From Candidatus Saccharimonadia bacterium (GTDB lineage Bacteria > Patescibacteriota > Saccharimonadia > CAILAD01 > BJGX01), in assembly GCA_044234435.1 (NCBI GenBank), contig JBIIIT010000002.1, positions 1 to 47,822 on the forward strand: a stretch of 47,822 bases of DNA. Reading direction: 5' to 3'. Positions 13,584 through 47,822 of this stretch are shown piece by piece. Below the pieces are notes generated by a model that was not told the DNA's origin, did no database searches, and saw nothing but the letters and a program-made list of their open reading frames with translations. The translations under genes were made by a program, and so were the position numbers. Each line of letters opens with the position of its first letter. Position 1 is the first letter of the stretch.

Positions 13584-14126
13584 ATGAAAGAACATGTCGT
13601 ATTAGTAGACGAATCTAACGCAAAGCTTGGACTTGAGGACAAATACAAGGTCCATACTGGCGAAACCCCTTTGCATAGGGGATTTTCTCTGTTTATGTTC
13701 AACAAAAAGGGTGAACTGCTTTTGCAGCAAAGATCAGATAGTAAAATTACTTGGCCAGGAATATGGAGCAATTCGGTTTGCGGACACCCTGCAGATGGCG
13801 AAACGGTGCAGCAGGCGGCCAAGCGAAGGGCACAATTTGAACTGGGAATTGAATTGGAACTATCAGACATTCATCTTATATTAGAGGACTACAGATACAG
13901 ATATGAGCATAAGGGGGTTGTTGAGAATGAAATTTGCCCTGTTATGGTCGCGGTCGGTGATTTTGTCCCCAGCCCTAACCCAGAAGAGGTAAAAGATACC
14001 AGATGGGTTAGCTGGAAGGACTTTCTAAAAGAAATTAGTAAACCCAATGAGTATTCGGACTGGTGCCAGGAGGAAGCCAAGTTGCTTAATAAACATCCAG
14101 AATTCAAAAAACTCATCAATCAATAG
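13584..14126 (+). CDS. idi: Isopentenyl-diphosphate delta-isomerase, type 1 (Nudix fold)
   Basis: HRGFSLFMFN...LLLQQRS..K..WPG.WSNSVCGHP..GE...AA.RR...ELG pattern matches type 1 IDI. Confidence 0.85.
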   Translation: MKEHVVLVDESNAKLGLEDKYKVHTGETPLHRGFSLFMFNKKGELLLQQRSDSKITWPGIWSNSVCGHPADGETVQQAAKRRAQFELGIELELSDIHLILEDYRYRYEHKGVVENEICPVMVAVGDFVPSPNPEEVKDTRWVSWKDFLKEISKPNEYSDWCQEEAKLLNKHPEFKKLINQ

Positions 14127-14165: not shown

Positions 14166-15068
14166 ATGAATAATGCCATTCAAACAGTCGCATTAAGTAA
14201 AAAGTACGGTAAAAAGTGGGCTATTCGAGGTGTTGATATTGAAGTCCCTAGAGGTTCTATTTATGGTTTCCTGGGCCCCAATGGTGCCGGCAAAACCACC
14301 ACTATACGCTGCTTAATGAACTTTATTAAGCCCACCAAAGGAATAATAAACGTTTTAGGAATGGATTCTCAGGATGATGCCAAAATGATTCACAAGCGCA
14401 TTGGCTATTTAACTGGTGAAATGGACTACTATGAAAACTTAACAGGCCGACAATACATCAGCTATCTCGGCCATTTACAGGGGACCCTAGACAGTAAAGA
14501 AGTAAATAAGTTGGCCAAAAGGCTTAAGGCTGACTTGGGCGCAAAAATAAAGACATTAAGCAGGGGAAACAAGCAAAAGATTGGCTTAATCTCGGCCTTT
14601 CAGCACAAACCAGAGCTATTAGTGCTAGACGAGCCGACAAGCGGTTTAGATCCAATTTTGCAGCGCGAATTTGTCGACATGCTTTTTGAGCATAAAAAAG
14701 CAGGGGGCACTACATTTATTAGCTCACATTTTTTAATGGAAGTGGAACAGGTCTGCGATATAGTTTGCTTCATAAATAAGGGTCGGGTTGCAGAACAAAT
14801 GACTCTAGAAAAATTGCACGAAAAATCCATACATGAATTTGATGTAGTGTTTAAAGATAAACCGGCCAATAAAGCGATGCTAGATGGAGTTAAGGGCATA
14901 AAGGAGCTAAAGATTGATGGCAACTTTATGCACTGTCACATAGCAGGCTCAGTTGATAATTTTTTAAAGGCTATTGCCAAGCAACCGGTCAGAAGCTTAC
15001 GAACCAGAGAGCTTGATTTAGAAGAAATATTCTTAAAAATGTATGGCAAGGATGTGCCTAATGTTTAG
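14166..15068 (+). CDS. ABC transporter ATP-binding protein (ABC-2 type exporter)
   Basis: Walker A GPNGAGKTT, signature LSRGNKQK, Walker B LLVLDEPTSGLD. Confidence 0.9.
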   Translation: MNNAIQTVALSKKYGKKWAIRGVDIEVPRGSIYGFLGPNGAGKTTTIRCLMNFIKPTKGIINVLGMDSQDDAKMIHKRIGYLTGEMDYYENLTGRQYISYLGHLQGTLDSKEVNKLAKRLKADLGAKIKTLSRGNKQKIGLISAFQHKPELLVLDEPTSGLDPILQREFVDMLFEHKKAGGTTFISSHFLMEVEQVCDIVCFINKGRVAEQMTLEKLHEKSIHEFDVVFKDKPANKAMLDGVKGIKELKIDGNFMHCHIAGSVDNFLKAIAKQPVRSLRTRELDLEEIFLKMYGKDVPNV

Positions 15069-15851
15069 AATTCCAACTCTTAAAACTATCTATGACAAGC
15101 GTTGGGTTATTCTGGCCTGGTCTTTGGGTGCGTTTGCGATGAATTTGCTTATAACTTGGATTTTCCCAGATTTTAAAAACCCCCAGCTGGTGGAGGTATT
15201 TAAAAACCTGCCAGAATCGCTACAGGCTTTTTCGGGATCATTAGATATTGGAACAATTGATAAGTACTTAGATAGCCAGGTATTTTTCAATAACGGATCG
15301 TTTATTTTTTGGATTTTAGGAATCAGCATGGGGGTAAATTTACTTGCCACAGATGAAGATAAGGGCACGCTAGAGACCACACTATCTACTAAAATATCTA
15401 GAAATAGACTTTATATAGAAAAGTTTGTAGCCATGCTTTTGATATTTTTAATTGTGAATATTGCAGGAACCTTGGCAATATGGGTTGGTCTACAAATAAT
15501 TAACGAGTCGGTAAGTGTACTCAGGCTGGTGCAAGCCACACTTATGTTATTTGTGTTTACTTCATTGTTGGGAGCATTTTCTTTTTCTGTCGGGGCACTA
15601 TCGGGAAGGAAAAATTTGGCTATTGGGATTCCGACTCTAACTTTAGTAATTATGTTTTTGGTATATACATTTTCTCAAACCGTGGACTGGATGAAGAATT
15701 GGGATAAATTTACCTGGAATTATTATTATGCTAATGGGCAAACAGTATTAAAGGGTATTTCTTACTGGGACTTATCAGTGTTAATTATTTCTTTTGCAGT
15801 GTTTTTTGCTATTGGAATCATACTTTTTAATAAAAGAGACCTAAGAAAATA

Positions 15852-15852
<1 letters not shown>
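15061..15852 (+). CDS. ABC-2 family transporter permease
   Basis: Six-TM protein immediately following the ATPase. The ATG at 15061 overlaps the ATPase stop (AATGTTTAG). The track start at 15043 is less likely. Confidence 0.7.
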
Positions 15853-18404: not shown

Positions 18405-18809
18405 ATGTCAGAGCTCTATGAAGTTCATAAGGCAATTCGCTACATTTATCCAGAGCAAGCAGTACCTGTAAAGCAAATTGTGTCAGCCCCGACAAGAGAC
18501 CCTTACAGAGTACGTCCAATTTTTGGTGCCATCGGCTTTGACTTTATCAGATTGGTTTTTTTTGAAATCGATACAGGAGAAATGCTTCGCCATATAGTGG
18601 CCGAACCAGAAACTTACTACTGGGGCGACGAAATATCCCTTGAAGAAGCATTGCTTATGAAGGGGCTAGAGGAGATCGACGAAGTGTCGAGCTGTGAGCG
18701 TTTTGTCTATACTGCCTGGGGAGCCTTTATTCCACTAAAGGACAACGAGATGGCCCTACCTTATCCTGAGCTTCCCGAACTACCAGCAAATATGAGGCTG
18801 GATTCATAG
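18405..18809 (+). CDS. Hypothetical protein, paralog A of the 19156 gene (134 aa)
   Basis: TATAAT plus an AAGGAG leader. Shares RYIYPE, GAIGFDF, LRHIV-E-ETYYWG-E, ERF and WG..PLKD blocks with the ORF at 19156. Confidence 0.65.
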   Translation: MSELYEVHKAIRYIYPEQAVPVKQIVSAPTRDPYRVRPIFGAIGFDFIRLVFFEIDTGEMLRHIVAEPETYYWGDEISLEEALLMKGLEEIDEVSSCERFVYTAWGAFIPLKDNEMALPYPELPELPANMRLDS

Positions 18810-19155: not shown

Positions 19156-19557
19156 ATGCAAGAAAGCGAAGTCTATGAGTCTCAGATTGAAGTTTTTAAG
19201 TGTGTGAGATACATTTACCCTGAAGGGGTAATTCCAATCAGGGATTTCGCGCCTCGATTGAGCGAGAACGCTGCTGACGTCGAGCCTGTGAATGGAGCAA
19301 TCGGATTTGATTTCGTCAGTCTCATTTACTTTGACTTCGAAGATCGTCGCCTGCGACACATCGTGGGCGAAGCCGAGACGTATTACTGGGGCCAGGAGCT
19401 TAGTAGGGACGAACTGGCCAATCTGCCAGATACCGATTTCGTTCTGGAGCGAATCTCTACTGAGCGATTCCTGCTAAGTTCATGGGGCGGCATTGTGCCA
19501 CTCAAAGATTTTGAGCATGGAATCACCCCAAATCTTATTCAGGCTCCAAGCAGCTAA
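19156..19557 (+). CDS. Hypothetical protein, paralog B of the 18405 gene (133 aa)
   Basis: Shares the conserved blocks listed for 18405-18809. Visibly more G+C-rich than typical genes here. Followed by a strong terminator. Confidence 0.65.
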   Translation: MQESEVYESQIEVFKCVRYIYPEGVIPIRDFAPRLSENAADVEPVNGAIGFDFVSLIYFDFEDRRLRHIVGEAETYYWGQELSRDELANLPDTDFVLERISTERFLLSSWGGIVPLKDFEHGITPNLIQAPSS

Positions 19558-20044: not shown

Positions 20045-21085
20045 CTAGCTTTGATCAACCTTGCTCATAGTTGATATTTTTCTCACAAACATCAACAGCC
20101 ATCCAAATGTGATAATAAAGCCGATTAGCTCGAAAGCAGTCAGGCTGAAGTAGCCTACGACCGAGAAAAGAATATAACAAAATGCAATCAGGGCGAGGGT
20201 TAGGTAAGAGTTGGTGAGGAATGTTTTGTCGATTTTGGGAAATATAAATCTTAAGCTCAGAACTATTACCCCAAAAATAATCAACATCGAGTATCCTAAG
20301 AAATCATGAACTCCCGGAGCTTTATCGTAGGGAAAAATTCCAAGCCCAGCCATATCAATTCCTAAAACTATAAAAAGCAGGCTCAGTATGTTCAGATTTA
20401 CGTCTTTTTTATCAAATATGAATTTGGAGCGCTTTAAGTCGTTAGTGAATTGAGTACTAAGCGCAATCACTAAAAGTCCTGCCATTATAATTGTGAGATT
20501 AAAGCTCAGAGATGATATCCCACTGCCCCAGCCTAAATATGAGAAATTGACCTGCCACCAATTTGGATTATTGTTGGTTAGCATACTAAGTATGATTCCC
20601 GAGACCATAACAATCGAAAAGAGCCTGGCAACAATAGCTGTATTCATACCCATTGCAACAGGGATAATTAAATAAATCAATACGCCCGAATATATTCCTA
20701 CAAAAGCTGAAGATATAAAGGCATCAAGAGCCAAGTTCTTAAAAGAGTTGTTCAGCAGCGATATTAAAAGAAAGCTCACCATTGCGACGGTGATTGTCAG
20801 GGCAATTGTAAGCACGAAACAATTATAAATCAGAACTCCTAGGCGCAGATTTATTTTCCTTTGTCTCAGACCTTTTAAATAAAATGGTGTGAAAGTAAAA
20901 ACGCAAATTACAGCCGCCGAGATAAGCATCATAAGGCCAATAGATATATCGCCAGATAGTGTGATCGCTGGCTTACTTCGGAAAACTACGTAGCTAATTA
21001 TTGTGAAGACCAAGATGCTTGGTATTAGTAAAAGTTCAGCCGGGTTATTGACTGATGAAGCATACTTTTTAATAGCACGAAGCAT
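20045..21085 (-). CDS. Hypothetical polytopic membrane protein (about 346 aa)
   Basis: About 9-10 hydrophobic helices. The ATG at 21085 sits 1 nt after the stop of the upstream channel gene (TAAtATG). The longer track ORF would overlap that gene. Confidence 0.55.
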   Translation of the reverse strand: MLRAIKKYASSVNNPAELLLIPSILVFTIISYVVFRSKPAITLSGDISIGLMMLISAAVICVFTFTPFYLKGLRQRKINLRLGVLIYNCFVLTIALTITVAMVSFLLISLLNNSFKNLALDAFISSAFVGIYSGVLIYLIIPVAMGMNTAIVARLFSIVMVSGIILSMLTNNNPNWWQVNFSYLGWGSGISSLSFNLTIIMAGLLVIALSTQFTNDLKRSKFIFDKKDVNLNILSLLFIVLGIDMAGLGIFPYDKAPGVHDFLGYSMLIIFGVIVLSLRFIFPKIDKTFLTNSYLTLALIAFCYILFSVVGYFSLTAFELIGFIITFGWLLMFVRKISTMSKVDQS

Positions 21086-21086
21086 A

Positions 21087-21410
21087 TTATTTCCTTCTTT
21101 TGTTTTTTTGTTTTTCAATTCTTCTTTGAGCTGCAGTTCTGACAATTATATTAAGTGATGCAGCAATAATTCCAACCCCAATTAGAACGTAAAAAATAGT
21201 GAATATTTTTGTAATATCGTTTGTGGGGTGGATATCTCCATATCCCACGGTAGTTATCGTGATGACCGAAAAATAAACCGCATCAAGCCATTTTAGGGGC
21301 ATAAAGTAATGATAAAAAACCGTACCAGTAGCTATTACAGAAACAGCAGTAAGAACTACCCACTTGAATTTGAGTGCTTCTGATTCGGATTTTGTAGTCT
21401 TTTTGTTCAT
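21087..21410 (-). CDS. Minimal two-TM potassium channel (KcsA-like pore)
   Basis: Canonical selectivity filter TTVGYGD between two TM helices. 107 aa. Confidence 0.85.
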   Translation of the reverse strand: MNKKTTKSESEALKFKWVVLTAVSVIATGTVFYHYFMPLKWLDAVYFSVITITTVGYGDIHPTNDITKIFTIFYVLIGVGIIAASLNIIVRTAAQRRIEKQKNKRRK

Positions 21411-21481: not shown

Positions 21482-21877
21482 ATGGAATATGGTTCTTGGT
21501 ACTCAAGACAAAAAAAGCCCTCTTGGGCACCTCCTGAAATTGCCTTTGGCCAAATATGGAGCTTTTTGTATCCAATAATTTTTGCCGTTAATATTTATGT
21601 TTTCTATCTTTTAAGCAAGGGGCAAATATCCTGGCGAGTAGCATTGCCATTTTGGCTTAATTTATTTTTCAATTTTGCATTTTCACCACTACAGTTTGGT
21701 CTTAGATCTCAAATATTATCTTCAATAGATATAGTGTTGGTACTTGTAACGACAGTATGGTGCATTATAGCTATCTGGCCCTATAGTAAGCTTGCATCCA
21801 TAGCCTTCACGCCTTATTTGATTTGGGTATCTATAGCAACCGTTTTGCAGATTTCTATTACAGTTCTCAATAGATAG
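21482..21877 (+). CDS. tspO: TspO/MBR family (tryptophan-rich sensory) protein
   Basis: KPSWAPPEIAFGQIWSFLYP start and five Trp-rich TM helices typical of TspO. Confidence 0.8.
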   Translation: MEYGSWYSRQKKPSWAPPEIAFGQIWSFLYPIIFAVNIYVFYLLSKGQISWRVALPFWLNLFFNFAFSPLQFGLRSQILSSIDIVLVLVTTVWCIIAIWPYSKLASIAFTPYLIWVSIATVLQISITVLNR

Positions 21878-21923
21878 TTTAAAGGGCTTATGCTAAAATT
21901 AATTTATAAATAAATGGAGATTT

Positions 21924-22697
21924 ATGAAGGCTAAAACAATTCAAGGCAAAAAATTACAAAAGTTTAATTTAATTATGGGTTTAATCCATCTGGCACAGGC
22001 CGGGATACTTTTTGCTATTCTCAATTATTCATTTAAAATACCTATCTTAACCAGATTTTTTGATACAACTCCGGGCGGTGGATTTACAGTCATCACAGAA
22101 AGGCTTTGGGAAGTTCCGATTGCAGTAATTGCCCCAATATTCCTACTCATTGCCGCCTTTTTCCATCTATTGATTGCCTCGCCATTATATATTCGCCGCT
22201 ACGAGCAAAATATTAAAAATGGCATCAACCCAATTCGTTGGTGGGAGTATTCTATTAGCTCTTCTTTGATGCTTGTAGGGTTAATGATGATGGCTGGGCT
22301 TACCGAACTTCCTAGTGTAGTTTTTGTTTTTGTACTTAACTGGATAATGAATATGATGGGTCTAATGATGGAGCGCTACAACCAGCTAACAGATAAGACC
22401 AAATGGTTTCCGTACAATATTGGAGTAGTTGCTGGGCTTACCCCGTGGGTAATCGGCTTTATATATTTCTGGGTCAACACCAATAATATCTCTGATTCCA
22501 TACCGTCTTGGGCAAAAATTGGCTTTATTATTACTTTTGTCTTTTTCAACACCTTCGCAATCAATATGCTACTTCAATACAAAAAAGTCGGAAAGTGGAA
22601 GAACTACGTTTATGGAGAAAAGGGCTATATCTGGCTGAGTTTAATAGCTAAATCAGTGCTTGCATGGATAATTGTCCTGGGCACATTAAATCAGTAG
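21924..22697 (+). CDS. Heliorhodopsin
   Basis: 257 aa, 7 TM. The blocks LQKFN..G.IHLAQ, FFHLLIAS, NPIRWWEYSISSS and WLSLIAKSVLAW follow heliorhodopsin 48C12 as I recall it. The Schiff-base Lys is present (K243, nt 22650-22652), as are counterion Glu E108 and His22/His81. Confidence 0.9.
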   Translation: MKAKTIQGKKLQKFNLIMGLIHLAQAGILFAILNYSFKIPILTRFFDTTPGGGFTVITERLWEVPIAVIAPIFLLIAAFFHLLIASPLYIRRYEQNIKNGINPIRWWEYSISSSLMLVGLMMMAGLTELPSVVFVFVLNWIMNMMGLMMERYNQLTDKTKWFPYNIGVVAGLTPWVIGFIYFWVNTNNISDSIPSWAKIGFIITFVFFNTFAINMLLQYKKVGKWKNYVYGEKGYIWLSLIAKSVLAWIIVLGTLNQ

Positions 22698-22707
22698 GGC
22701 TTATCAT

Positions 22708-23373
22708 ATGAACACCACAGCAAATTTAGCTCAAGCAATCTTCATAGCAGGCAACATGGTGTGTTTTGCATTTCTAGGTTATTGGTTTATCAAGCTTAAA
22801 AAACCGACCTTCAAGCTTTTTGGTATATCTATGGCGCTTTTGGCAGTCGTCGAGCTGTGTGTGCTTGGTGTAAATATGTTATGGAATTTACCAATTTTGG
22901 ATTTTAAGTCTTTGCAATACTTAGTATACCTCTACGCTATTTTGATGTTATTTGCGACCTCCTCGTCAGCTCTACGTAGCAAAACTAGCTATTATATAAA
23001 TATTTTTCTGGCGTTTGCGGCCATACTTGTGACCGGTCTATTCTTTTTTGAAAGGACCCTAAACAACGCTACAGCTTACACGATAAACTACTATCTATCT
23101 TTTGATAATGCTGCCACGCTTAATATTTTTAGCCTTACTGTGGCTCTATCTCTTGGAATGGCGGCCCTTGTGATTGGTCAAAATATCAAAAATAAAACCT
23201 CAAAGCTTATATTTGAGTCCAGCTTTTTAGTAATAACAATTTCATTGGTTCTTAATCTCATAATATACAATGATACGGCTCGTCTCATAGCAAGTATTGT
23301 GCAGTTATTGGCCCTACTGGGCATTTGTTTGTATATCTACAAAAACCCCAAAGTATTTAAATCATCCAGCTAG
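22708..23373 (+). CDS. Unknown 7-TM membrane protein
   Basis: 221 aa with seven hydrophobic helices. Starts 10 nt after the heliorhodopsin stop. No Lys in the last helix, so not a rhodopsin. Confidence 0.55.
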   Translation: MNTTANLAQAIFIAGNMVCFAFLGYWFIKLKKPTFKLFGISMALLAVVELCVLGVNMLWNLPILDFKSLQYLVYLYAILMLFATSSSALRSKTSYYINIFLAFAAILVTGLFFFERTLNNATAYTINYYLSFDNAATLNIFSLTVALSLGMAALVIGQNIKNKTSKLIFESSFLVITISLVLNLIIYNDTARLIASIVQLLALLGICLYIYKNPKVFKSSS

Positions 23374-23437
23374 CAAATATTGACATAGTTAAGCTTTAAA
23401 AGTACTATATAGCGGCCCTACAAGCCAAGGAGGACTG

Positions 23438-24105: not shown

Positions 24106-24756
24106 ATGATGAAAAATTTACCAGGCAGCTATGATAGAGAAATTAATAAAGGCCACAGGCACCTATGGATACTTGCTGTTGTTTTTGCGATTGCCGTAGC
24201 TTCTGCAATTGCATTGTATTTTATTATCAGGTCCGACAATAAAACCGGCCCGACAGGTCAAAAGCTAAATAACAGTATTAGTTCTTATGAAAACAAATAT
24301 GTGGGCAGGAGTATCAAAATAGACACCACCAACATTAAGGCCCCCTGGGTGTTGCAAAATGGCAGTGAATCTAGCTTCATACTCAACAACTCAACTTGCA
24401 AGGCAAGTATTAGCAGCTCAAATGATGTCCCTGCACTCCTAAATGCAGGCCAAACCCTTAATAGTGCGGTGAATAATAAGCTTGAAGAACTTAAAAACAG
24501 CTCAAAAGATCAATCTCTAATAATAGGCGAGACCACAAGCACAAAAATTGATTCAAACAAAGGTAACATTGAGTTTATGATTAAAGACTCTGAGTATAAA
24601 GCAAAGGATGACATCACACATCAAGCCAATGTATATGGCCAATGGCTAGGAGAGTATCAACTTTTTGTAGTCGTAGATTGCAATAAAACAGATTATCTTG
24701 AGTCAAAACAAGAAATAGGTGATTTTATAAATAATCTCTCGTTAAGAATTAATTAA
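24106..24756 (+). CDS. Membrane-anchored hypothetical protein
   Basis: I chose the ATG at 24106 (MMKNLPG...) because the track start at 24028 would read through the terminator. One N-terminal TM (LWILAVVFAIAVASAIALYFII) and an extracytoplasmic Ser/Asn-rich domain. Confidence 0.5.
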   Translation: MMKNLPGSYDREINKGHRHLWILAVVFAIAVASAIALYFIIRSDNKTGPTGQKLNNSISSYENKYVGRSIKIDTTNIKAPWVLQNGSESSFILNNSTCKASISSSNDVPALLNAGQTLNSAVNNKLEELKNSSKDQSLIIGETTSTKIDSNKGNIEFMIKDSEYKAKDDITHQANVYGQWLGEYQLFVVVDCNKTDYLESKQEIGDFINNLSLRIN

Positions 24757-25159
24757 GATTACCAAGCAAATAAGTATTTAGAATTGAATCAGCTTTTGAT
24801 GAGTGCCTGCCTTCTCCGCCTTTATTATTATAAGCGGATGTGGCATCTTCTCCGCAGTAGTTAAGTATGAGATCGGCCCCGCCGGGGTGTTCATCTAGAT
24901 AGCTTGTTACATCATACACATTTCCTCGGATTGCTACCCAACAATCATTGGACTTGTTATGCTTGGAAAGTTCTGACAGATTGATGCTTTTAGCTTCTTG
25001 CTGTATAGCTTCCTCGGTGTTTTCATTTGTGGTGGGCACATCTTGCACTTTATTTTCAACATCAGATTCTTTTTTCTGAGCATCTATGAAGCCCCATACT
25101 AACATTCCAGACATCAGTACTGCTACAATTACGAATACTATTGCTACGGCTTTCTTCAT
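24749..25159 (-). CDS. Membrane-anchored cytochrome b5-like heme-binding domain protein
   Basis: N-terminal TM, then the cytochrome b5-type block CWVAIRGNVYDVTSYLDEHPGG. The start overlaps the upstream stop (ATGA). Confidence 0.8.
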   Translation of the reverse strand: MKKAVAIVFVIVAVLMSGMLVWGFIDAQKKESDVENKVQDVPTTNENTEEAIQQEAKSINLSELSKHNKSNDCWVAIRGNVYDVTSYLDEHPGGADLILNYCGEDATSAYNNKGGEGRHSSKADSILNTYLLGNLN

Positions 25160-26469
25160 GACAAATTAAACTCCTCAGTGTTAATATTTTTGCTCTTTAC
25201 ACCCTTCAGCCTGAGCTGGTACTTAAGAGACTTCATCATTGGTGCAGGACCACAGATCATGAAGTTTGCGCCATCTAAATCCTTACTTTTATCAAATATA
25301 ACATCTACGGTTAGCAGACCATCTTTATCTTCATAAAAAGGAATCAGATTAAGGTTTGTTTTTTGCTTGGCAATAGATTGTAGCTGTTCTAAATAGAAGG
25401 CATCTTGTTTTGTTTTAACTGCATAATATAAATCTATTTTCTGCGATTCGTCGGCCGATTTAGCCATAGACATAAAGGGCGTCACGCCAATTCCACCAGC
25501 TATCCAGATTTGTCTGGGGTTTTTTACTACTTTGTTTGAGAAGGTACCATATGGGCCATCAATTTTAAAAATTGAGCCAGCCTTCACCTCTTCTAGTGCA
25601 CTGGTAAAGTCGCCTAGAGCCTTAATACCAAACCTTAACTTACTTTCGGTGGGCGATGAGCTCATTGAAAAGGGGTGTGATTCTCCCAATAGACCCTTGG
25701 TGTCTTGCTTGATAAAGGCGTACTGTCCAGGAACAAAATTCATCTTCTCATCAATGGGACTTAGTACTATCTCGTAAATACTGCCAGATTTGCTAATTTC
25801 ATCAAGCTTATAGTTATAAAACTTAGCAAAATTGCCATGAAATATTGACCGATATACATAAACAACCAGCGCCATACCAATAAGCAAGGCAAAGTAAATT
25901 TGTAAGCTAATAATTCCGTTTCCGGATAGGCCCAAATCACTTCCACCAACAAAAACAGCATGAATTGCACCTACAAAAAGCAAAAGCCCCAATACTCTCT
26001 GGGCAAGGATAAATTTCTTATATTCAACTTTTAAATAGAGTGTCACAAATATCGCAACAACCATTCCAAACAACGCAATGCTTCCCAGTGCTCTGAAAGG
26101 CGAGAGGATATTTGGCTTCAAAAACTCAAATGCTGAATTGGGCGATATTAAAAAGTAACGAATTGTCAGAAACAGCGGATGCAGCAGAAGTAGAATAAAC
26201 GCCAGTGAACCAATATTGTGGTGAGCCCTGTAGGTGTTATCAAGCCCGTGAAACATTCGATTGTATATTTTGAACCTGGCACTGAGTATTACCGCCCAGG
26301 CAAAAAGCGCCATTCCGGCAAGGCCTGCTAGCTTACCCAGACTCTGAAATATATTTTGGGCGCCATCCCAATCTAGCGGCATCGCTATTAGCCACAAAAG
26401 CACTGGGGTTATAGCAATAAGTATAGTTAAAGCACCCCCAAAGTTGAAATATTTTCTGCGACTGTTCAT
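25156..26469 (-). CDS. Ferric reductase-like transmembrane domain fused to FAD/NAD(P)-binding domain (NOX/FRE-like oxidoreductase)
   Basis: Six-TM N-terminus with spaced His pairs (HHNIG...LLLHP; IHAV). HPFSMSS FAD motif and GGIGVTP NAD(P) motif. Confidence 0.8.
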   Translation of the reverse strand: MNSRRKYFNFGGALTILIAITPVLLWLIAMPLDWDGAQNIFQSLGKLAGLAGMALFAWAVILSARFKIYNRMFHGLDNTYRAHHNIGSLAFILLLLHPLFLTIRYFLISPNSAFEFLKPNILSPFRALGSIALFGMVVAIFVTLYLKVEYKKFILAQRVLGLLLFVGAIHAVFVGGSDLGLSGNGIISLQIYFALLIGMALVVYVYRSIFHGNFAKFYNYKLDEISKSGSIYEIVLSPIDEKMNFVPGQYAFIKQDTKGLLGESHPFSMSSSPTESKLRFGIKALGDFTSALEEVKAGSIFKIDGPYGTFSNKVVKNPRQIWIAGGIGVTPFMSMAKSADESQKIDLYYAVKTKQDAFYLEQLQSIAKQKTNLNLIPFYEDKDGLLTVDVIFDKSKDLDGANFMICGPAPMMKSLKYQLRLKGVKSKNINTEEFNLS

Positions 26470-32261: not shown

Positions 32262-33833
32262 ATGGATAACAATTCGCCTGAGCAACCTCAAAATAATAGC
32301 AGCCCTGAACAACCAAATACTAATTTGCCAAATAACGACGCCGGCAATCCGATTAAACCAGCTCCAGTAAGACTTGCTGGACAGGAAGACTCTACTTTTG
32401 GTCAGCCTTCGATGTCAGCGCAAACTGCACAGCCCAGGGTAGCGCCAATGAATCCTTCAATGATGCAAGCCACGCCTCCAGCACGACCTAGGGGTAGAAT
32501 GATAATTATTGTTGTAGGAATTTTGGCACTCCTTTCAGGCATAGTAGCTTTGATATTCTATTTTTCTTATTGGATAAACCCTAGTGTTGTGTTTTCAAGA
32601 TTTCAAAGAAACGCTAATAATGTTCTATTACAGGCGATTACTAATCAGTCAAAATTAATAAGCAATGTTAAGTATAGCCTAACAGCCGAGTCTACAGACT
32701 CTGATTTAAGAGCAGGCATTACATCAAGCGGTAAAGCATTGGAATCAAGTTCGGAGAGTATTAGTACTTTAACCTACAAAAATAGCACTCTCGGCTTAGA
32801 ATTCAAACAGCCACCACCCAATAATGGCCAAAGCATACTATATTTTAAATACCAAAATCTTAATAAGTTTCTAGTCGATACTATCGGCACAAAGCAGGTT
32901 AAGAATCTTGGATTACAGACTGCTGGAATCCAAAAATACGATAATAAATGGATATCTTTAGATACGAGCTCCTTATTGGCATCTCCCAGTAGTAGCGAGC
33001 CTACAAATACAACAGACGCAACGTTGTCTCAATCGGACTACGACTCGTTAAATAAGGCGTTTGCGCCCATCATTGCAACCGCCATCTCAGGAACAGATAA
33101 AAAGAAAGCGATATTTAGCTACGATAAGCCTAAGTCAGAAAGAGTCAACGGTATAGACACCTACGCCTATAGCATGAAATACAATCAAGAAGCATATAAT
33201 ACTATGATTAGTGACCTCTCTTCTGCAGTCGATTCTACATCATTATCCGATAGAAAAAAAACCGATATCAAAACTGCCTTAGAGGGCTTCGTGCAGCAAT
33301 CTGATGCAAATAACAGCGGAGGCAATGAAACAGAACTACGCGATACGCCTCTCGAACTTAACGAAGATCAAAATGACATAACCCAAAGTATTAGCAACTC
33401 CCTATCGGAAAATAAAACCTCTACAACTTTTACAATTTGGCTCGAAAAGAATACATCACTTCCTGTTCAGATATCAATCGTTACTGATATTACCAATGCT
33501 GGCAGCTTAACAAACCAAACTACTTTCAAAACAAATGTCAAAACATTCAGTAGCTCATCATTTACAGGGGAAATATCTTTAGTGTCAATTGATAAGAAGA
33601 ATAATTTTAACTTAGTAGATTCTAAGATTGGGTACACAATAAATCCAAACAGTAGCAAAATTGAGCTATCCGGAACGACAATATACAAAGCCTCCAAAGA
33701 TGCTAAAGATAACAATTTCAAGTTAGAATTAACGTTGGAACCCAGCACTGATAATACACCTGTTCAAAAGCCAGCTCAGTCCACCAAATTTGAAACAGTG
33801 TTACAGCAAATATTGAACACCTCAGCCCGATAA
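32262..33833 (+). CDS. Membrane-anchored hypothetical protein with Pro/Gln-rich N-terminus (523 aa)
   Basis: Low-complexity N-terminus, one TM (MIIIVVGILALLSGIVALIFYF) and a large Ser/Thr/Asn-rich extracytoplasmic domain. Confidence 0.6.
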   Translation: MDNNSPEQPQNNSSPEQPNTNLPNNDAGNPIKPAPVRLAGQEDSTFGQPSMSAQTAQPRVAPMNPSMMQATPPARPRGRMIIIVVGILALLSGIVALIFYFSYWINPSVVFSRFQRNANNVLLQAITNQSKLISNVKYSLTAESTDSDLRAGITSSGKALESSSESISTLTYKNSTLGLEFKQPPPNNGQSILYFKYQNLNKFLVDTIGTKQVKNLGLQTAGIQKYDNKWISLDTSSLLASPSSSEPTNTTDATLSQSDYDSLNKAFAPIIATAISGTDKKKAIFSYDKPKSERVNGIDTYAYSMKYNQEAYNTMISDLSSAVDSTSLSDRKKTDIKTALEGFVQQSDANNSGGNETELRDTPLELNEDQNDITQSISNSLSENKTSTTFTIWLEKNTSLPVQISIVTDITNAGSLTNQTTFKTNVKTFSSSSFTGEISLVSIDKKNNFNLVDSKIGYTINPNSSKIELSGTTIYKASKDAKDNNFKLELTLEPSTDNTPVQKPAQSTKFETVLQQILNTSAR

Positions 33834-39321: not shown

Positions 39322-41451
39322 ATGAGTACAGAAACATTAGAAGACAATACTAATGTAGAAAAAAAGTCTGAAAATCACGCCAGAAAAATATCTGAACTCC
39401 AAGAAGATCTGCACGAAATAGCAGAAGATATTGAGTCTGGCGAAATAAACCCCAAGCTTAAACTACCAGAGGAGGGCGAGGAGGTTGCCGAATTTATCGA
39501 TAGCAAGGGGCAAGAACGTAAGGCCTCCAGAGAAATTGCACTTCTTGGTCCAGAGCAAATCGTAGCTATTGATAGTTTTTTCAGAGAGCACGACGAGCTG
39601 GCCGATTCGGTAGAAACCATGCTTAGTTTTGCCCAAGACATTAATACTGAGCTTAAAAACGTCGGGCCAGATGGCAAATACCAGCCCCTTTCTCGTATTA
39701 CAGATCCAGAAAAAGTATTAGAACATATCAAAAGCCCGGAGCCCCTAGAGCCGAACTCCGAGCAAGTACAGCTACCCGAAGACGATCGCAAGAAGCTTAC
39801 CGATTTAACAGCTCAAATAGCCGAACTCAAAAGCCTACTTGCAATTGCTCCTCTTGGTGATGACTATAAAAGCATCAAAGAATATATAGATTCCTACTAT
39901 CAGACTCTAGGGCCCGATGAAATGCCCCAAATAGCCAAGCTTGGCATGATGGCCAGAATAAATTCAGGGGCAAGAGAGTCTTCATTGCAAGAAATCGAGG
40001 CATTTAGGGCCGAGCAACAAAGAATGCTAGACTTACAAATAGATTTAGCTAATAAATTAATATCGAAAATCACTCAAGGTCAATTAGATGCCAAGCTTGC
40101 TAGCTTTCCATCCGCGTTATTCGAGCCATACAGCACAGGCAGTGGTTATGACCCAGGTGAGGGGCTAGACCCAACCAACGGCCCTTTGCAAAATGAGGTC
40201 TGCATTATAGAGGAGGCTCAGGAATTAGCTAATTACTATCAGCAGTTTGAGTATATGCATGTGCTCGAAGACGACACTTTAAGCGTGCTTAAAGCTCCAG
40301 AAATTAGAGCCGTCTTAGATCAACTCAGTCCTCAAGAACAATCCCAATTATCTACTCTAATTGCAACAAGTATACAAAAAGACTTAGAGTCTAATCATGA
40401 ATTAAAGCTAGGGCAAATTACCAAGGCAGCCTATGATGCCAAGCTAAAAGTTACAGATACCGCAAAGGACGCTGATTTCCTGCTTCGAAACGCGCTATAT
40501 CAAGAAAAGGCATTGGCAGATTTATATATTTCTGAGAGGGAAGAAGAGAGAATCGCCGGGCTATTAGAAACAATAAAATTAATTTACCCCGAATCTACAG
40601 CAGATCCGCAAAAAATTATTGATTCTATAAAAGAGCCGGACTTTAAAATAGTAAGTGCATCTAGCCTACTCGTTCACAATTCTGGATTTGCTAGAGAAAT
40701 TGTAGAATCTGGCGAACTCAGAACCAAACAAACTCAAATAAATAAAACAGGTACTCTTAATGAGACCACGAAGCCCGGCACCGAGACTCAGAGTGGACTT
40801 AAAACCCATAGCAGGTCAATACACTACTCAGACAAATTGCATTTGGGCTATTCATCAGTAGAAAGGGTGGCTCCTGGAGAGGCAGGAGTAATACTGGTTC
40901 CTATTGGAAAAATAGTAGAGCATTCACCCATAAACAAAGATGGTATGCAGTTAACTAGCGTGAAGGCTTCTGGAAACGAAACTGGCACTATAAACTTGCC
41001 AAATAACCAACCAGATGAAAATGGAAAATGGGGTGATGAGGTATTTTTCTCATCCCCAATTGAAGAAGAAAGTGATATCTTTGAAGTCACCCTCGATAGC
41101 ACAACGGCCGCCATAATAGTCGGGGGTGAAATGGGAGAAAGACAAACTGAGGCTGGAGCTACAATCTATAATGTAGAGCCTCAGTATGATAAAGATAAGC
41201 AGATTGATCTAGGGGCTACGATGGTAAAATCCGGCTTAATAAGTGGGCAAATAATTCCTAAAATAAGCTCAGACCCTAAAATAGCAGGACGCATTGTCGT
41301 GCCCTTAAGAAGGGCGCCTTTAGATTTTGTGCCCGAAATAGTTGATAATATTGGGCAGAACACAGTTACAAGAAATCGCTTCAGAAAAGACACCCAAGTC
41401 TCCACACTAGATACTAATGGTGGCGTAGAACGTACCCACGTTCGAGATTGA
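39322..41451 (+). CDS. Large acidic hypothetical protein (709 aa)
   Basis: Uninterrupted ORF. The N-terminal two-thirds is Glu/Leu/Gln-rich and helical, and the C-terminal third is Gly/Thr-rich. No TM or signal peptide evident. Confidence 0.6.
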   Translation: MSTETLEDNTNVEKKSENHARKISELQEDLHEIAEDIESGEINPKLKLPEEGEEVAEFIDSKGQERKASREIALLGPEQIVAIDSFFREHDELADSVETMLSFAQDINTELKNVGPDGKYQPLSRITDPEKVLEHIKSPEPLEPNSEQVQLPEDDRKKLTDLTAQIAELKSLLAIAPLGDDYKSIKEYIDSYYQTLGPDEMPQIAKLGMMARINSGARESSLQEIEAFRAEQQRMLDLQIDLANKLISKITQGQLDAKLASFPSALFEPYSTGSGYDPGEGLDPTNGPLQNEVCIIEEAQELANYYQQFEYMHVLEDDTLSVLKAPEIRAVLDQLSPQEQSQLSTLIATSIQKDLESNHELKLGQITKAAYDAKLKVTDTAKDADFLLRNALYQEKALADLYISEREEERIAGLLETIKLIYPESTADPQKIIDSIKEPDFKIVSASSLLVHNSGFAREIVESGELRTKQTQINKTGTLNETTKPGTETQSGLKTHSRSIHYSDKLHLGYSSVERVAPGEAGVILVPIGKIVEHSPINKDGMQLTSVKASGNETGTINLPNNQPDENGKWGDEVFFSSPIEEESDIFEVTLDSTTAAIIVGGEMGERQTEAGATIYNVEPQYDKDKQIDLGATMVKSGLISGQIIPKISSDPKIAGRIVVPLRRAPLDFVPEIVDNIGQNTVTRNRFRKDTQVSTLDTNGGVERTHVRD

Positions 41452-45651: not shown

Positions 45652-45818
45652 TTAATATGAGCGTTACTAATAAAGTATCTCTGCAATTATGAAGCTTTAA
45701 AATTCCAATATCAATATAATTAATCGTATTCTTAGAAGAAATGGCATAATCGAATTTTTTTTCTAATTCCAAAAATTGAATTGTGGTCTCATAAAAAAGC
45801 ATAAGCTATAATAAAATT

Positions 45819-47822
45819 ATGAGTAGCGAAACACTCGATGACGTTAAATCATCTGCTCCACAAAAAACTACTACCTATAACGAATTAGAGCAGATACAGC
45901 AGAAGAACAATGAGCAAATTCAGGCCGATATCGATTTGGTAAATTTGTATACCTGCTTTGGTCCAGACCAAATACAAACCCAGCCCATCAGTGAGGAGCT
46001 CAAACAAATACTTTTAAATCCAAGCAATCTCACCGAAAGCCTCGACTTACTAAGAGAAGATACAAACAGCAGCAATCAGTCCGTATCGACGCAAGCAAAA
46101 GCGCTCCTCTCGGAGTACGACATTTATGTACGAAATTTAAGAGACATCCGAAAGCTTCAAAGACAAGAAATTAGCAACGTTAAAAAACTTCATGTTGAAG
46201 ATCCGAAGCCAGAACAAAGACAGGCCTTTATGCAAAGTCTGGCTTTCAGCAGCGTCATATCAGAAATGGTATATATGCGGTTACGGGACGATGGATACTT
46301 GCCGCCTGTTCAGAACGATGAACTAATCAAAGCGACAGAAACACCCGAGGGCTTTAAAGGAGCAGTAGAGGCCTTGGCAATCACCAAGCCTCAGCTTCTT
46401 ATCATGCATCTGGAACTTTACGAGCAAATGTTCGGAAAAGAAGACCTTCAAAACATTGCCAAAACCATCCTCGAGGGTGGCCAAGTAAACTTAATTGGCC
46501 TAGCTTCGGTAAAGCCCATACTAGAGCTGGTCCCAGAAGAAGAAAAACAAGAATTGGTTACTAATGTATTTAAAGAGTTCGGAACAGACAGCATTTCCGG
46601 CTTAATCGTTGATAAATTCATTGAATGCGCAGATATAATTGGGCCTGAAAAATCCAAAGAAATAGCAACCAATGCATTGAATGGCACCGGTCTTGGCTCT
46701 AAAGAAGTAAAATCCTTGCTAGGGGCGGGCTTATTAACATTAGAACAAATTCAGTCTGCTGTAGATTCAAAGATCAGTCCAGACGGCACAGAGACCATAA
46801 GAAATATAAGGCAATTAATTGATTTTGCAGACAGTGGGTTATTTGAGGATAATCAGTTTCCTATAAGGGCAACTGTCGAAAATTTCATCATGAATTCGAC
46901 ACAAATCATAATTGAATATCCTTTTGAAATAAACAGCATATGTAAATTTCTTGGCACAGAAAAATCAAAGCAGCTTCATGGGCTATTGTTTAAGCTCAAT
47001 CCTATTGAATACGAAAAAAGGCTAGGCGTCGTCAAGAATGCTGAATTATTAGAGGAATCCTCTCTTGCCGAACTAACTGAGATAATTAAAAATAACTTTT
47101 CTTTAGATAGTGTTGATGCTGCAGAACTTTGTGAGACTTTTATGAGCAGCCCCAGCGCTAGCTTCGAAGAAAAGAAGCAATGGATTCAAAACTACACAGA
47201 CCTTCAAAGGGCTTTTTTGTATGACATATTAAGCGAGGACAACCCCAAGACAAAAGAGCTGATAACCCAAATATACAGCCCTACTGAAATTAACGAAATA
47301 CTTCAGGAAGTTTTGCTTCAAAACGAAGACTTCACAGTCACTGCAGCGGCAGACATTCTAGAATTCATCCCGGATAATCAAAAAGAAATATTTATTAATT
47401 CATTTTTACAATCCAGAGCGACATTAAGTTTTGCATCTGAGTATCGACTGCTCGTAGAAGATAGAGGTGAGGAATTTTTTAAGCCTTTTCTGGATAAAGA
47501 TAAATTGGAAAATCAACTTAATATTTATCTAGATTCTATTGGCAACAAAGACTCTATAGATTTAGGTTGGCGAGAATTAAATTATATTAAAGAAATATTT
47601 GGTACGGACAAATCCAAGCAAGTAGTAGACGTTTTTTTAATCAATAAGCCAGAAGTAGTAGTCGATAATTTAGAATTCATTTCTCAAAATTACACCCCAG
47701 AGGAATCTAAGCAAATACTTTTAAAATTAATGGAAGTTAATAGCAATTCAATAAAGAATTTAATAAAAAATCTAAATGGCGACCAAGGAATATTAAGCTC
47801 AGGGGATGATTTTAAATGGCCA
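45819..47822 (+). CDS. Large helical repeat protein, 3' end outside window (more than 668 codons); absent from ORF track
   Basis: I translated the frame codon by codon from the ATG at 45819 to the last base and found no stop. TATAAT (45807-45812) lies 6 nt upstream of the ATG. A motif like G-[TP]-[ED]-K-S-K-[QE]-[ILV] recurs. Confidence 0.7.
   Translation, partial: MSSETLDDVKSSAPQKTTTYNELEQIQQKNNEQIQADIDLVNLYTCFGPDQIQTQPISEELKQILLNPSNLTESLDLLREDTNSSNQSVSTQAKALLSEYDIYVRNLRDIRKLQRQEISNVKKLHVEDPKPEQRQAFMQSLAFSSVISEMVYMRLRDDGYLPPVQNDELIKATETPEGFKGAVEALAITKPQLLIMHLELYEQMFGKEDLQNIAKTILEGGQVNLIGLASVKPILELVPEEEKQELVTNVFKEFGTDSISGLIVDKFIECADIIGPEKSKEIATNALNGTGLGSKEVKSLLGAGLLTLEQIQSAVDSKISPDGTETIRNIRQLIDFADSGLFEDNQFPIRATVENFIMNSTQIIIEYPFEINSICKFLGTEKSKQLHGLLFKLNPIEYEKRLGVVKNAELLEESSLAELTEIIKNNFSLDSVDAAELCETFMSSPSASFEEKKQWIQNYTDLQRAFLYDILSEDNPKTKELITQIYSPTEINEILQEVLLQNEDFTVTAAADILEFIPDNQKEIFINSFLQSRATLSFASEYRLLVEDRGEEFFKPFLDKDKLENQLNIYLDSIGNKDSIDLGWRELNYIKEIFGTDKSKQVVDVFLINKPEVVVDNLEFISQNYTPEESKQILLKLMEVNSNSIKNLIKNLNGDQGILSSGDDFKWP

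Follow-up and report, generated by a model that had tools for sequence, protein, structure and literature searches.

Two heliorhodopsins (HeRs) of solved structure, TaHeR from the Thermoplasmatales archaeon SG8-52-1 (PDB 6IS6, 7CLJ, 7U55) and 48C12, the founding member of the family (PDB 6SU3, 6UH3), are among the closest described counterparts of the gene studied here, together with the 80 HeRs reported in Saccharimonadia by Chiriac et al. in 2022, which carry the motifs SLVAK, SLIAK or SFVAK (PMC9166423). That gene lies on a 47.8-kb stretch of DNA from a Candidatus Saccharimonadia bacterium (contig JBIIIT010000002.1, positions 1 to 47,822), referred to below as the window, where it stands between a gene for a TspO-family protein that lacks its first transmembrane (TM) segment and a gene for a seven-TM (7-TM) protein without recognisable family. 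Our preferred reading, to which we give a probability of roughly 0.6, is that the encoded protein would act as a light sensor that scavenges its retinal and signals through these operon partners.

Compared with the described systems, the window HeR is in most respects a familiar protein. It shares with TaHeR the same set of functional residues (one lysine, one glutamate, two histidines and one serine), a methionine (Met215) at the position of Gln213 in 48C12, and the same residues lining the lateral fenestration between TM5 and TM6 (Tyr164, Gly171, Phe208, Asn209 and Ala212), an opening that is intact here by a definition which requires, in 48C12 numbering, the aromatic pair 162/206, Gly169, Asn207 and a small residue at 210 (bioRxiv 10.1101/2025.11.27.691015). 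The host of TaHeR lacks a retinal pathway (PMC9296517). On the other hand, TaHeR comes from an archaeon and not from a Candidate Phyla Radiation (CPR) bacterium, it has a serine where the window HeR has Ala77, its extracellular TM5-TM6 loop is five residues shorter, and it has no known partner of the TspO or 7-TM kind. The correspondence with 48C12 extends to Lys241/Lys243, Glu107/Glu108, His23/His22, His80/His81 and Ser237/Ser239 (48C12 residue first), whereas Gln213 and Ser76 of 48C12 are replaced by Met215 and Ala77 and 48C12 falls outside the clade of the window HeR. The nearest relatives outside Saccharimonadia are HeRs of freshwater Actinomycetota, which are 63-70% identical and belong to the same clade but have no adjacent 7-TM orphan; their hosts encode a retinal pathway of their own along with actinorhodopsin (PMC9296517). 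Finally, the Saccharimonadia and CPR HeRs of Chiriac et al. come from the same organism group and habitat and share the SLIAK motif (PMC9166423), and in the published accounts of such HeRs that we examined an operon with TspO and a 7-TM orphan is not mentioned.

The assignment to the family rests on concordant matches. The open reading frame (ORF) is preceded by a GGAG motif 7 nt 5' of its start, and its product matches Pfam PF18761 over the full model (positions 1-242 of 242; 276.3 bits against a cutoff of 26.7; E = 2.5e-82) and the NCBIfam equivalog NF038020 with 288.7 bits (cutoff 100). Among solved structures the best match is TaHeR (PDB 6is6, E = 1.7e-59), followed at E ~1e-45 by the 48C12 structures 6su3 and 6uh3, and a three-way alignment puts the identity of the window HeR at 46% with TaHeR and 36% with 48C12. 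The initial annotation had described a 257-aa, 7-TM heliorhodopsin matching 48C12 block by block, with a Schiff-base lysine and a glutamate counterion, and this description is borne out by the Pfam, NCBIfam and PDB matches. Its four blocks align with 48C12 and TaHeR as LQKFN/IHLAQ to LQNFN/FHLLQ, FFHLLIAS to LFHFIVSS, RWWEYSISSS to RWVEYSLSSS and LSLIAKSVLAW to LSLVAKSALAW; Lys243 (codon AAA) and Glu108 (codon GAG) fall on Lys241 and Glu107 of 48C12, and the lysine, glutamate and histidine positions do correspond to the functional residues of characterised HeRs. Only the choice of reference needs amending, since the closest solved relative is TaHeR and not 48C12. Judged by these matches, the ORF almost certainly encodes a heliorhodopsin.

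Conservation of the functional positions is equally clear, both in a survey of 85 diverse HeRs and in an alignment of 143 HeRs of the clade to which the window HeR belongs. Lys243 and the counterion glutamate are invariant in both samples, Ser239, His22 and His81 are each found in 85/85, and the remaining functional columns of the survey are for the most part invariant and otherwise nearly so; across all 143 clade members, the residues of the pocket are as invariant as the Schiff-base lysine and the counterion. Asn15, Asn102, Arg105, Trp106, Tyr109, Glu150, Tyr228 and Trp248 are conserved in the window HeR as well. The full set of sequence determinants for a retinal-binding HeR is present in the predicted protein. 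The one departure is Ala77, which replaces a serine found in 80 of the 85 surveyed HeRs and is characteristic of the sub-lineage of the window; within the clade the position is polymorphic, with 31 alanines to 111 serines. In 48C12 the equivalent Ser76 forms a hydrogen bond with the counterion (PMC6951262). Ala77 marks a variant and leaves family membership unaffected, since no defining role is given to this residue in the family models. Covariation of Ala77 with the 7-TM neighbour was also considered and is ruled out by locus L086, which has Ser77 together with the neighbour.

Hydropathy gives seven segments, and lysines and arginines number 17 on the N-terminus and even loops but only 3 on the odd loops and C-terminus, so that the positive-inside rule predicts a cytoplasmic N-terminus and an outside C-terminus, the inverted HeR topology. 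Between the window and its closest syntenic relative (L001), the proportion of nonsynonymous differences (pN) in the HeR gene is 0.057 against a saturated proportion of synonymous differences (pS) of 0.86. Saturation of synonymous sites affects all comparisons of HeR genes, which restricts the analysis of this gene to pN/pS in place of dN/dS, the ratio of substitution rates. The window HeR is under strong purifying selection.

The organism can be placed from the rest of the window, which is a piece of cellular chromosome of about 40% G+C with genes that include gltX, class I ribonucleotide reductase (RNR), tgt, ATP-binding cassette (ABC) and major facilitator superfamily transporters, and GGDEF and PP2C-FHA proteins. 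Relatives of the window GltX come almost only from Saccharibacteria and other Patescibacteria, the rest being unclassified metagenome-assembled genomes (MAGs) and one weak Chitinophagales match (37%), and no Actinomycetota are among them. The best matches are an 83% identical protein from a Lake Mendota 'Candidatus Saccharimonadia' MAG, an 82% identical one from LBMAG_Ca.Saccharibacteria_epi.bin1, and proteins of about 72-75% identity from 'UBA4664' MAGs. L001 is a syntenic contig of the same Lake Mendota MAG, with a HeR 91% identical and neighbours 60-96% identical to those of the window. The window HeR thus belongs to a CPR bacterium, a freshwater member of the Saccharimonadia. Nothing points to a recent island, as tRNA genes are absent from the window and composition near the HeR gene shows no anomaly.

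A search for HeR homologues returned 760 at E <= 1e-3, many of them 63-96% identical. In species-representative genomes the nearest are two Saccharimonas MAGs (L002 and L003, 66-67%) and then freshwater Actinomycetota (63-66%), the actinomycetal relatives including Aquiluna/Luna-1, Planktophila/acI and others (L004-L017, L091). One HeR, 70% identical to that of the window, adjoins a Pup ligase gene, which we take to mark an actinobacterial contig. By comparison, the thirteen other Saccharibacteria HeRs in the sample (L021-L056) reach no more than 41-46% identity and group apart, in a clade of CPR type. In a neighbour-joining tree (250 columns, 200 bootstrap replicates), the window-type Saccharimonadia and freshwater Actinomycetota HeRs form one clade with 100% support, inside which the two phyla are not reciprocally monophyletic, support for monophyly being 50% for the window-type Saccharimonadia and 0.5% for the Actinomycetota. 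The shared clade, taken together with the placement of gltX among Saccharibacteria, argues for horizontal exchange of HeR between Saccharimonadia and their proposed hosts, and the sequences indicate a lineage shared with freshwater Actinomycetota through horizontal transfer. With support values this low, the tree leaves the direction and the number of transfers open. Jaffe et al. found the type-1 rhodopsins of the hosts to be phylogenetically distinct from those of Saccharibacteria (PMC9296517), and in this respect HeR behaves unlike the type-1 rhodopsins. We found no statement of the shared HeR clade in the text of the papers examined, published tree figures aside.

One locus bears separately on the distribution of the family. 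Saccharibacteria have a monoderm-type envelope. Locus L053 (JAYVTZ010000007.1) carries a HeR that clusters with those of Saccharibacteria, on a contig assigned by binning to the diderm family Burkholderiaceae. A preprint holds that HeRs are confined to monoderms (bioRxiv 10.1101/2025.11.27.691015), and the Burkholderiaceae assignment probably reflects faulty binning and not a departure from that rule.

How such a protein would obtain its chromophore can be judged from the window and from related genomes. Gene-like window ORFs with 90 aa or more, together with the one cut off by the 3' end, were scanned with Pfam and NCBIfam, and none matched Blh/Brp, a carotenoid oxygenase, lycopene cyclase, phytoene synthase or phytoene desaturase; the earlier statement that the window holds no carotenoid or retinal synthesis gene is therefore upheld, as is the one that idi, a confident family match (Table 1), is its only isoprenoid gene. 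The product of idi feeds general isoprenoid metabolism and is no evidence for carotenoid synthesis; in L081 and L084 it is syntenic as a NUDIX gene. Rhodopsin-bearing Saccharibacteria were found to lack blh, whereas blh in the same lakes comes almost entirely from Nanopelagicales Actinobacteria, which makes Actinobacteria the likely retinal source, and added retinal is rapidly taken up by Saccharibacteria rhodopsins and also by HeR, whose apoprotein has an opening through which it enters (Jaffe et al. 2022, PMC9296517). TaHeR, as cited in the same paper, takes up external retinal through its TM5/TM6 fenestration. The suggestion in the initial annotation of host-derived retinal agrees with this published model, and we consider it probable that the retinal of the window HeR comes from outside the cell. 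The cell itself would make none; all-trans-retinal would be taken from neighbouring or host cells, most plausibly freshwater Actinomycetota, and would enter the apoprotein through the TM5/TM6 fenestration. If no retinal were obtained, the protein would exist in vivo as an apoprotein without chromophore, either a relic of transfer no longer used as a photoreceptor or a membrane protein with a light-independent role. A window without a retinal pathway and a lineage acquired or exchanged horizontally would be compatible with such a state, but the strong purifying selection, the invariance of the Schiff-base lysine, counterion and pocket residues in 143/143 clade members and the fast uptake of external retinal make it very improbable, and the class I (aerobic-type) RNR genes nrdA and nrdB in the window would suit an oxic habitat.

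The candidate signalling partners come from the arrangement of genes. On the plus strand, TspO is followed after 46 nt by HeR and, after a further 10 nt, by the 7-TM gene (Table 1). Neither the TspO-HeR gap nor the HeR-7TM gap contains a terminator-like site, the two such sites in the interval 21482-23373 falling within the TspO and HeR coding sequences, and a strong promoter-like site lies at 23380, after the 7-TM gene and before the next gene. The block around HeR recurs in relatives whose HeRs are 72-91% identical: L084, L086/87 and L089 have it in full, and L001 shares its upstream part, the contig ending inside HeR. Since pS between these genomes is 0.75-0.87 and synonymous sites are thus saturated, the conserved order does not simply reflect recent common ancestry. 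Six more syntenic contexts, at distances past synonymous saturation, contain the pair of HeR and 7-TM gene. The 7-TM gene stands directly 3' of HeR, with 3-12 nt between them or a 4-nt overlap, in L081-83, L084, L085, L086/87, L088 and L089, that is, in every close relative with sequence past the end of HeR, and in L085, L086/87, L088 and L089 it begins 3-12 nt after a HeR that is 72-78% identical, even though the 7-TM proteins themselves are only 25-31% identical; the overlap of 4 nt is that of L084. Farther away the block order is not kept. In the Saccharimonas MAGs with HeRs of 66-67% identity, HeR lies between genes for a SOUL heme-binding protein and a DsbA-like protein (L002 137-739). 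Nor is the order kept in Actinomycetota, and in Aquiluna the neighbours (L007 7562-11698) are KatG, a peroxiredoxin-like gene and a 289-aa tryptophan-rich membrane protein, which has no Pfam match, TspO included.

The 7-TM protein is an orphan, with no Pfam or NCBIfam match and six word-indexed homologues; a profile search run exhaustively against 1.84 billion cluster representatives found only 13 that are related. Its predicted topology, N-terminus outside and C-terminus inside, is opposite to that of HeR, and an AlphaFold2 model gives a seven-helix bundle with a short helix in a long outer loop (pLDDT 72.6, pTM 0.70). It evolves much faster than HeR (pN 0.26-0.53 versus 0.10-0.19) while keeping its length and topology. 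Two specific identities were considered and rejected. A Blh/Brp-type beta-carotene dioxygenase is contradicted by the absence of any histidine, of a Pfam or NCBIfam match and of more than a few invariant residues in its family. The protein has no lysine in the middle of TM7, and a degenerate rhodopsin paralogue without its lysine was the second identity considered; hhalign against the HeR profile and against bacteriorhodopsin gave a probability of 0.1% each and Foldseek returned generic folds only. We regard the orphan as a real gene and, judged on gene order alone, as the best candidate for a HeR partner. A functional analogy, and no more than that, is offered by sensory rhodopsin II and HtrII, a non-pumping rhodopsin beside a probably co-transcribed membrane protein that could relay a signal; in contrast to HtrII, the orphan has no HAMP or MCP domain and no detectable family similarity, and it is a candidate by gene order.

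The TspO-like protein upstream matches PF03073 from position 21 to 143 of 145, aligns from its residue 5 onward to residues 27-29 of the Rhodobacter TspO chains, and is encoded by an ORF that cannot start further upstream, from which it follows that it lacks TM1. With 69 bits against a cutoff of 180 for the NCBIfam TspO equivalog, it is by sequence a superfamily member and not a canonical five-TM TspO; a four-TM form would be an unusual variant of this five-TM ligand-binding bundle. The gene lies upstream of HeR in L001, L084, L086/87 and L089, the short form (122-131 aa) is also found in L084, L086 and L089, and comparison with L001 gives a dN/dS of about 0.04, indicating strong constraint. 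TspO adjacency as a general feature of HeR loci is not supported, as outside this lineage it occurs in only one other examined locus (L012, among the freshwater Actinomycetota), where the two genes are divergently oriented. No papers were retrieved when the literature was searched for heliorhodopsin together with TspO.

Placing these observations together, we can outline how the retinal-scavenging sensor would work, by analogy with characterised HeRs. Light would isomerise the retinal bound at Lys243, with Glu108 as counterion; the Schiff-base proton would move to the Glu108 region and stay inside the protein; and a long-lived intermediate would signal through protein-protein contact, with no ion being pumped. 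From gene order, the likeliest contacts would be the downstream 7-TM orphan and the upstream TM1-less TspO. The likely output would be protection against light or oxidative stress, because the neighbours include tetrapyrrole-binding and heme genes (TspO, cytochrome b5 and a NOX-like reductase). Genes of this kind, namely TspO, SOUL, KatG, cytochrome b5 and NOX-like genes, surround HeRs of this clade, and published HeR contexts include glutaredoxin, peroxidase and catalase, with a link to oxidative stress (PMC8612252). That the operon neighbours are indeed the partners of HeR is a tentative proposal, for which we would put the odds somewhat short of even. The stronger version, in which the TM1-less TspO, HeR and the 7-TM protein form a dedicated photosensory module, the fast-evolving, outward-facing orphan would be the first case of a HeR transducer or partner that is itself embedded in the membrane, and HeR would have been exchanged between host and episymbiont, is doubtful as a whole; within it, the orphan could possibly also acquire retinal or a tetrapyrrole from the actinobacterial host.

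Several observations weigh against signalling through operon partners. A promoter-like site lies between TspO and HeR, and TspO may therefore not be co-transcribed with HeR; moreover, TspO is missing in L081-83. Linkage to HeR does not hold across the whole 7-TM family either, since P0134 and P0136, the most distant members with readable context (E ~1e-5 to 1e-7), are not beside a HeR. The family has almost no invariant residues, only Gly39 and Ala152, and Foldseek finds nothing beyond generic G-protein-coupled receptor-like or rhodopsin-like bundles (E > 0.05, TM-scores 0.22-0.52). The flanking K+ channel, cupin and cytochrome b5/flavocytochrome genes are also syntenic within this single lineage, so that the conserved order may partly reflect general genome stability. 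As for retinal scavenging, the window covers 47.8 kb, and for the rest of the genome it is solely published work on related genomes that excludes a retinal pathway.

These points bear on the possibility that the window HeR is a genuine sensor that acts on a transport protein or a soluble protein whose gene lies elsewhere, with the 7-TM and TspO genes as unrelated neighbours; for other HeRs the targets named are glutamine synthetase, photolyase or an ABC transporter. The initial annotation had called the physiological output of HeRs largely unresolved, and this is partly true, as outputs have been reported for other HeRs: AbHeR binds and regulates a glutamine synthetase encoded in the same operon (PMC9529153), modulation of an ABC transporter by a HeR is cited in the literature, and the viral HeR V2HeR3 is reported to transport protons (PMC9448325). 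None of these is directly transferable to the window HeR. The enzyme partner and the cited transporter do lend some credit to a target encoded elsewhere, as do the high general synteny of the lineage and an ABC transporter pair about 6 kb upstream (14166-15852) that is syntenic in L081, L084 and L089. We nevertheless regard such a target as unlikely: the window contains no glutamine synthetase or photolyase gene, AbHeR belongs to another HeR group and has a glutamine where the window HeR has Met215, and the 7-TM gene keeps a tighter spacing to HeR than any other neighbour despite its low sequence identity.

A HeR acting alone, either as a light-driven or light-gated ion transporter like V2HeR3 or as a light harvester with a carotenoid antenna for energy capture, is improbable. 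Proton transport by the viral protein is a precedent, Saccharibacteria use type-1 rhodopsins for proton pumping (PMC9296517), and a preprint reports that 91% of HeRs have a carotenoid-binding fenestration, whose residues are kept here (bioRxiv 10.1101/2025.11.27.691015). Yet the fenestration is absent from the viral subfamily, to which the window HeR does not belong; TaHeR and 48C12 are its nearest relatives of solved structure; and an antenna has by itself no energy-conserving output. The original studies of TaHeR and 48C12 reportedly found no ion transport.

Table 1. Positions in the window of the HeR gene, its functional codons and the other features discussed.
Feature	Position	Strand	Evidence and remarks
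Heliorhodopsin (HeR) gene	21924-22697	+	ATG start; 257 aa, 7 TM, predicted N-terminus inside
His22 codon (= His23 of 48C12)	21987-21989	+	Alignment
Ala77 codon (= Ser76 position of 48C12)	22152-22154	+	Alignment
His81 codon (= His80 of 48C12), partner of His22 near the Schiff-base cavity	22164-22166	+	Alignment
Glu108 codon (= Glu107 of 48C12), single TM3 counterion	22245-22247	+	Alignment
Ser239 codon (= Ser237 of 48C12), SxxxK motif, here SLIAK	22638-22640	+	Alignment
Lys243 codon (= Lys241 of 48C12), retinal Schiff-base lysine	22650-22652	+	Alignment
Orphan 7-TM membrane protein, candidate operon partner	22708-23373	+	221 aa, predicted N-terminus outside
TspO/MBR-family gene, without TM1	21482-21877	+	131 aa, 46 nt upstream of HeR; Pfam PF03073, 96.6 bits
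Two-TM K+ channel-like gene, divergent from TspO/HeR	21087-21410	-	Pfam Ion_trans_2, 76 bits
Cytochrome b5-like gene and overlapping ferric-reductase/NOX-like flavocytochrome	24749-26469	-	Cyt-b5, 90 bits; Ferric_reduct + FAD_binding_8 + NAD_binding_1
idi, type-1 isopentenyl diphosphate isomerase	13584-14126	+	NF002995, 206.5 bits (cutoff 127); TIGR02150, 140.8 bits (cutoff 105.8)

The wider neighbourhood is conserved to differing degrees. The K+ channel-like gene is kept in L001, L081-84, L086 and L089, and it forms a pair with a DUF998-like gene that is conserved beside HeR in relatives. The DUF998-like ORF (20045-21145, minus strand; a weak match) opens with TTG and has 59 nt in common with the end of the K+ channel ORF; its true start is probably a downstream ATG. 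The cytochrome b5/flavocytochrome pair lies about 1.4 kb downstream of the HeR operon in the window and is near it in L081, L084, L086 and L089, directly abutting it in L086 and L089. A CPR bacterium is expected to have no respiratory chain, and the pair could serve in iron reduction or in producing or detoxifying reactive oxygen species.

Elsewhere in the window, two tandem paralogous hypothetical genes of about 133 aa (18405-18809 and 19156-19557, plus strand) lie upstream of the HeR block; each shares roughly 44% identity with the L001 counterpart of the other, and both are kept in L001, L081 and L086. Three large plus-strand ORFs, 32262-33833 (523 aa), 39322-41451 (709 aa) and 45795-47822 (more than 668 aa), have no Pfam match at E <= 0.1. 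Large surface proteins are expected in CPR episymbionts, and these ORFs may encode such proteins.

What this locus adds lies around the HeR gene rather than in it. The gene is ordinary for its group, and the NCBI annotation pipeline already names such proteins by an equivalog model. The novelty seen in it at the outset accordingly stands in part: the idea of host-derived retinal fits the literature, but with 80 Saccharimonadia HeRs already catalogued (PMC9166423) and retinal dependence published, the HeR itself is of known type. New here are the clade common to host and symbiont phyla, the conserved pair of HeR and 7-TM gene with a TM1-less TspO, and the Ala77 variant. The last of these, in which alanine takes the place of the serine that hydrogen-bonds the counterion, is a naturally occurring variant of use in spectroscopic work. 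As the signalling targets of most HeRs are still unknown, the 7-TM orphan and the truncated TspO provide two concrete candidates. Furthermore, the shared HeR clade offers independent genetic support for a proposed pairing of host and symbiont which has so far rested on co-occurrence.

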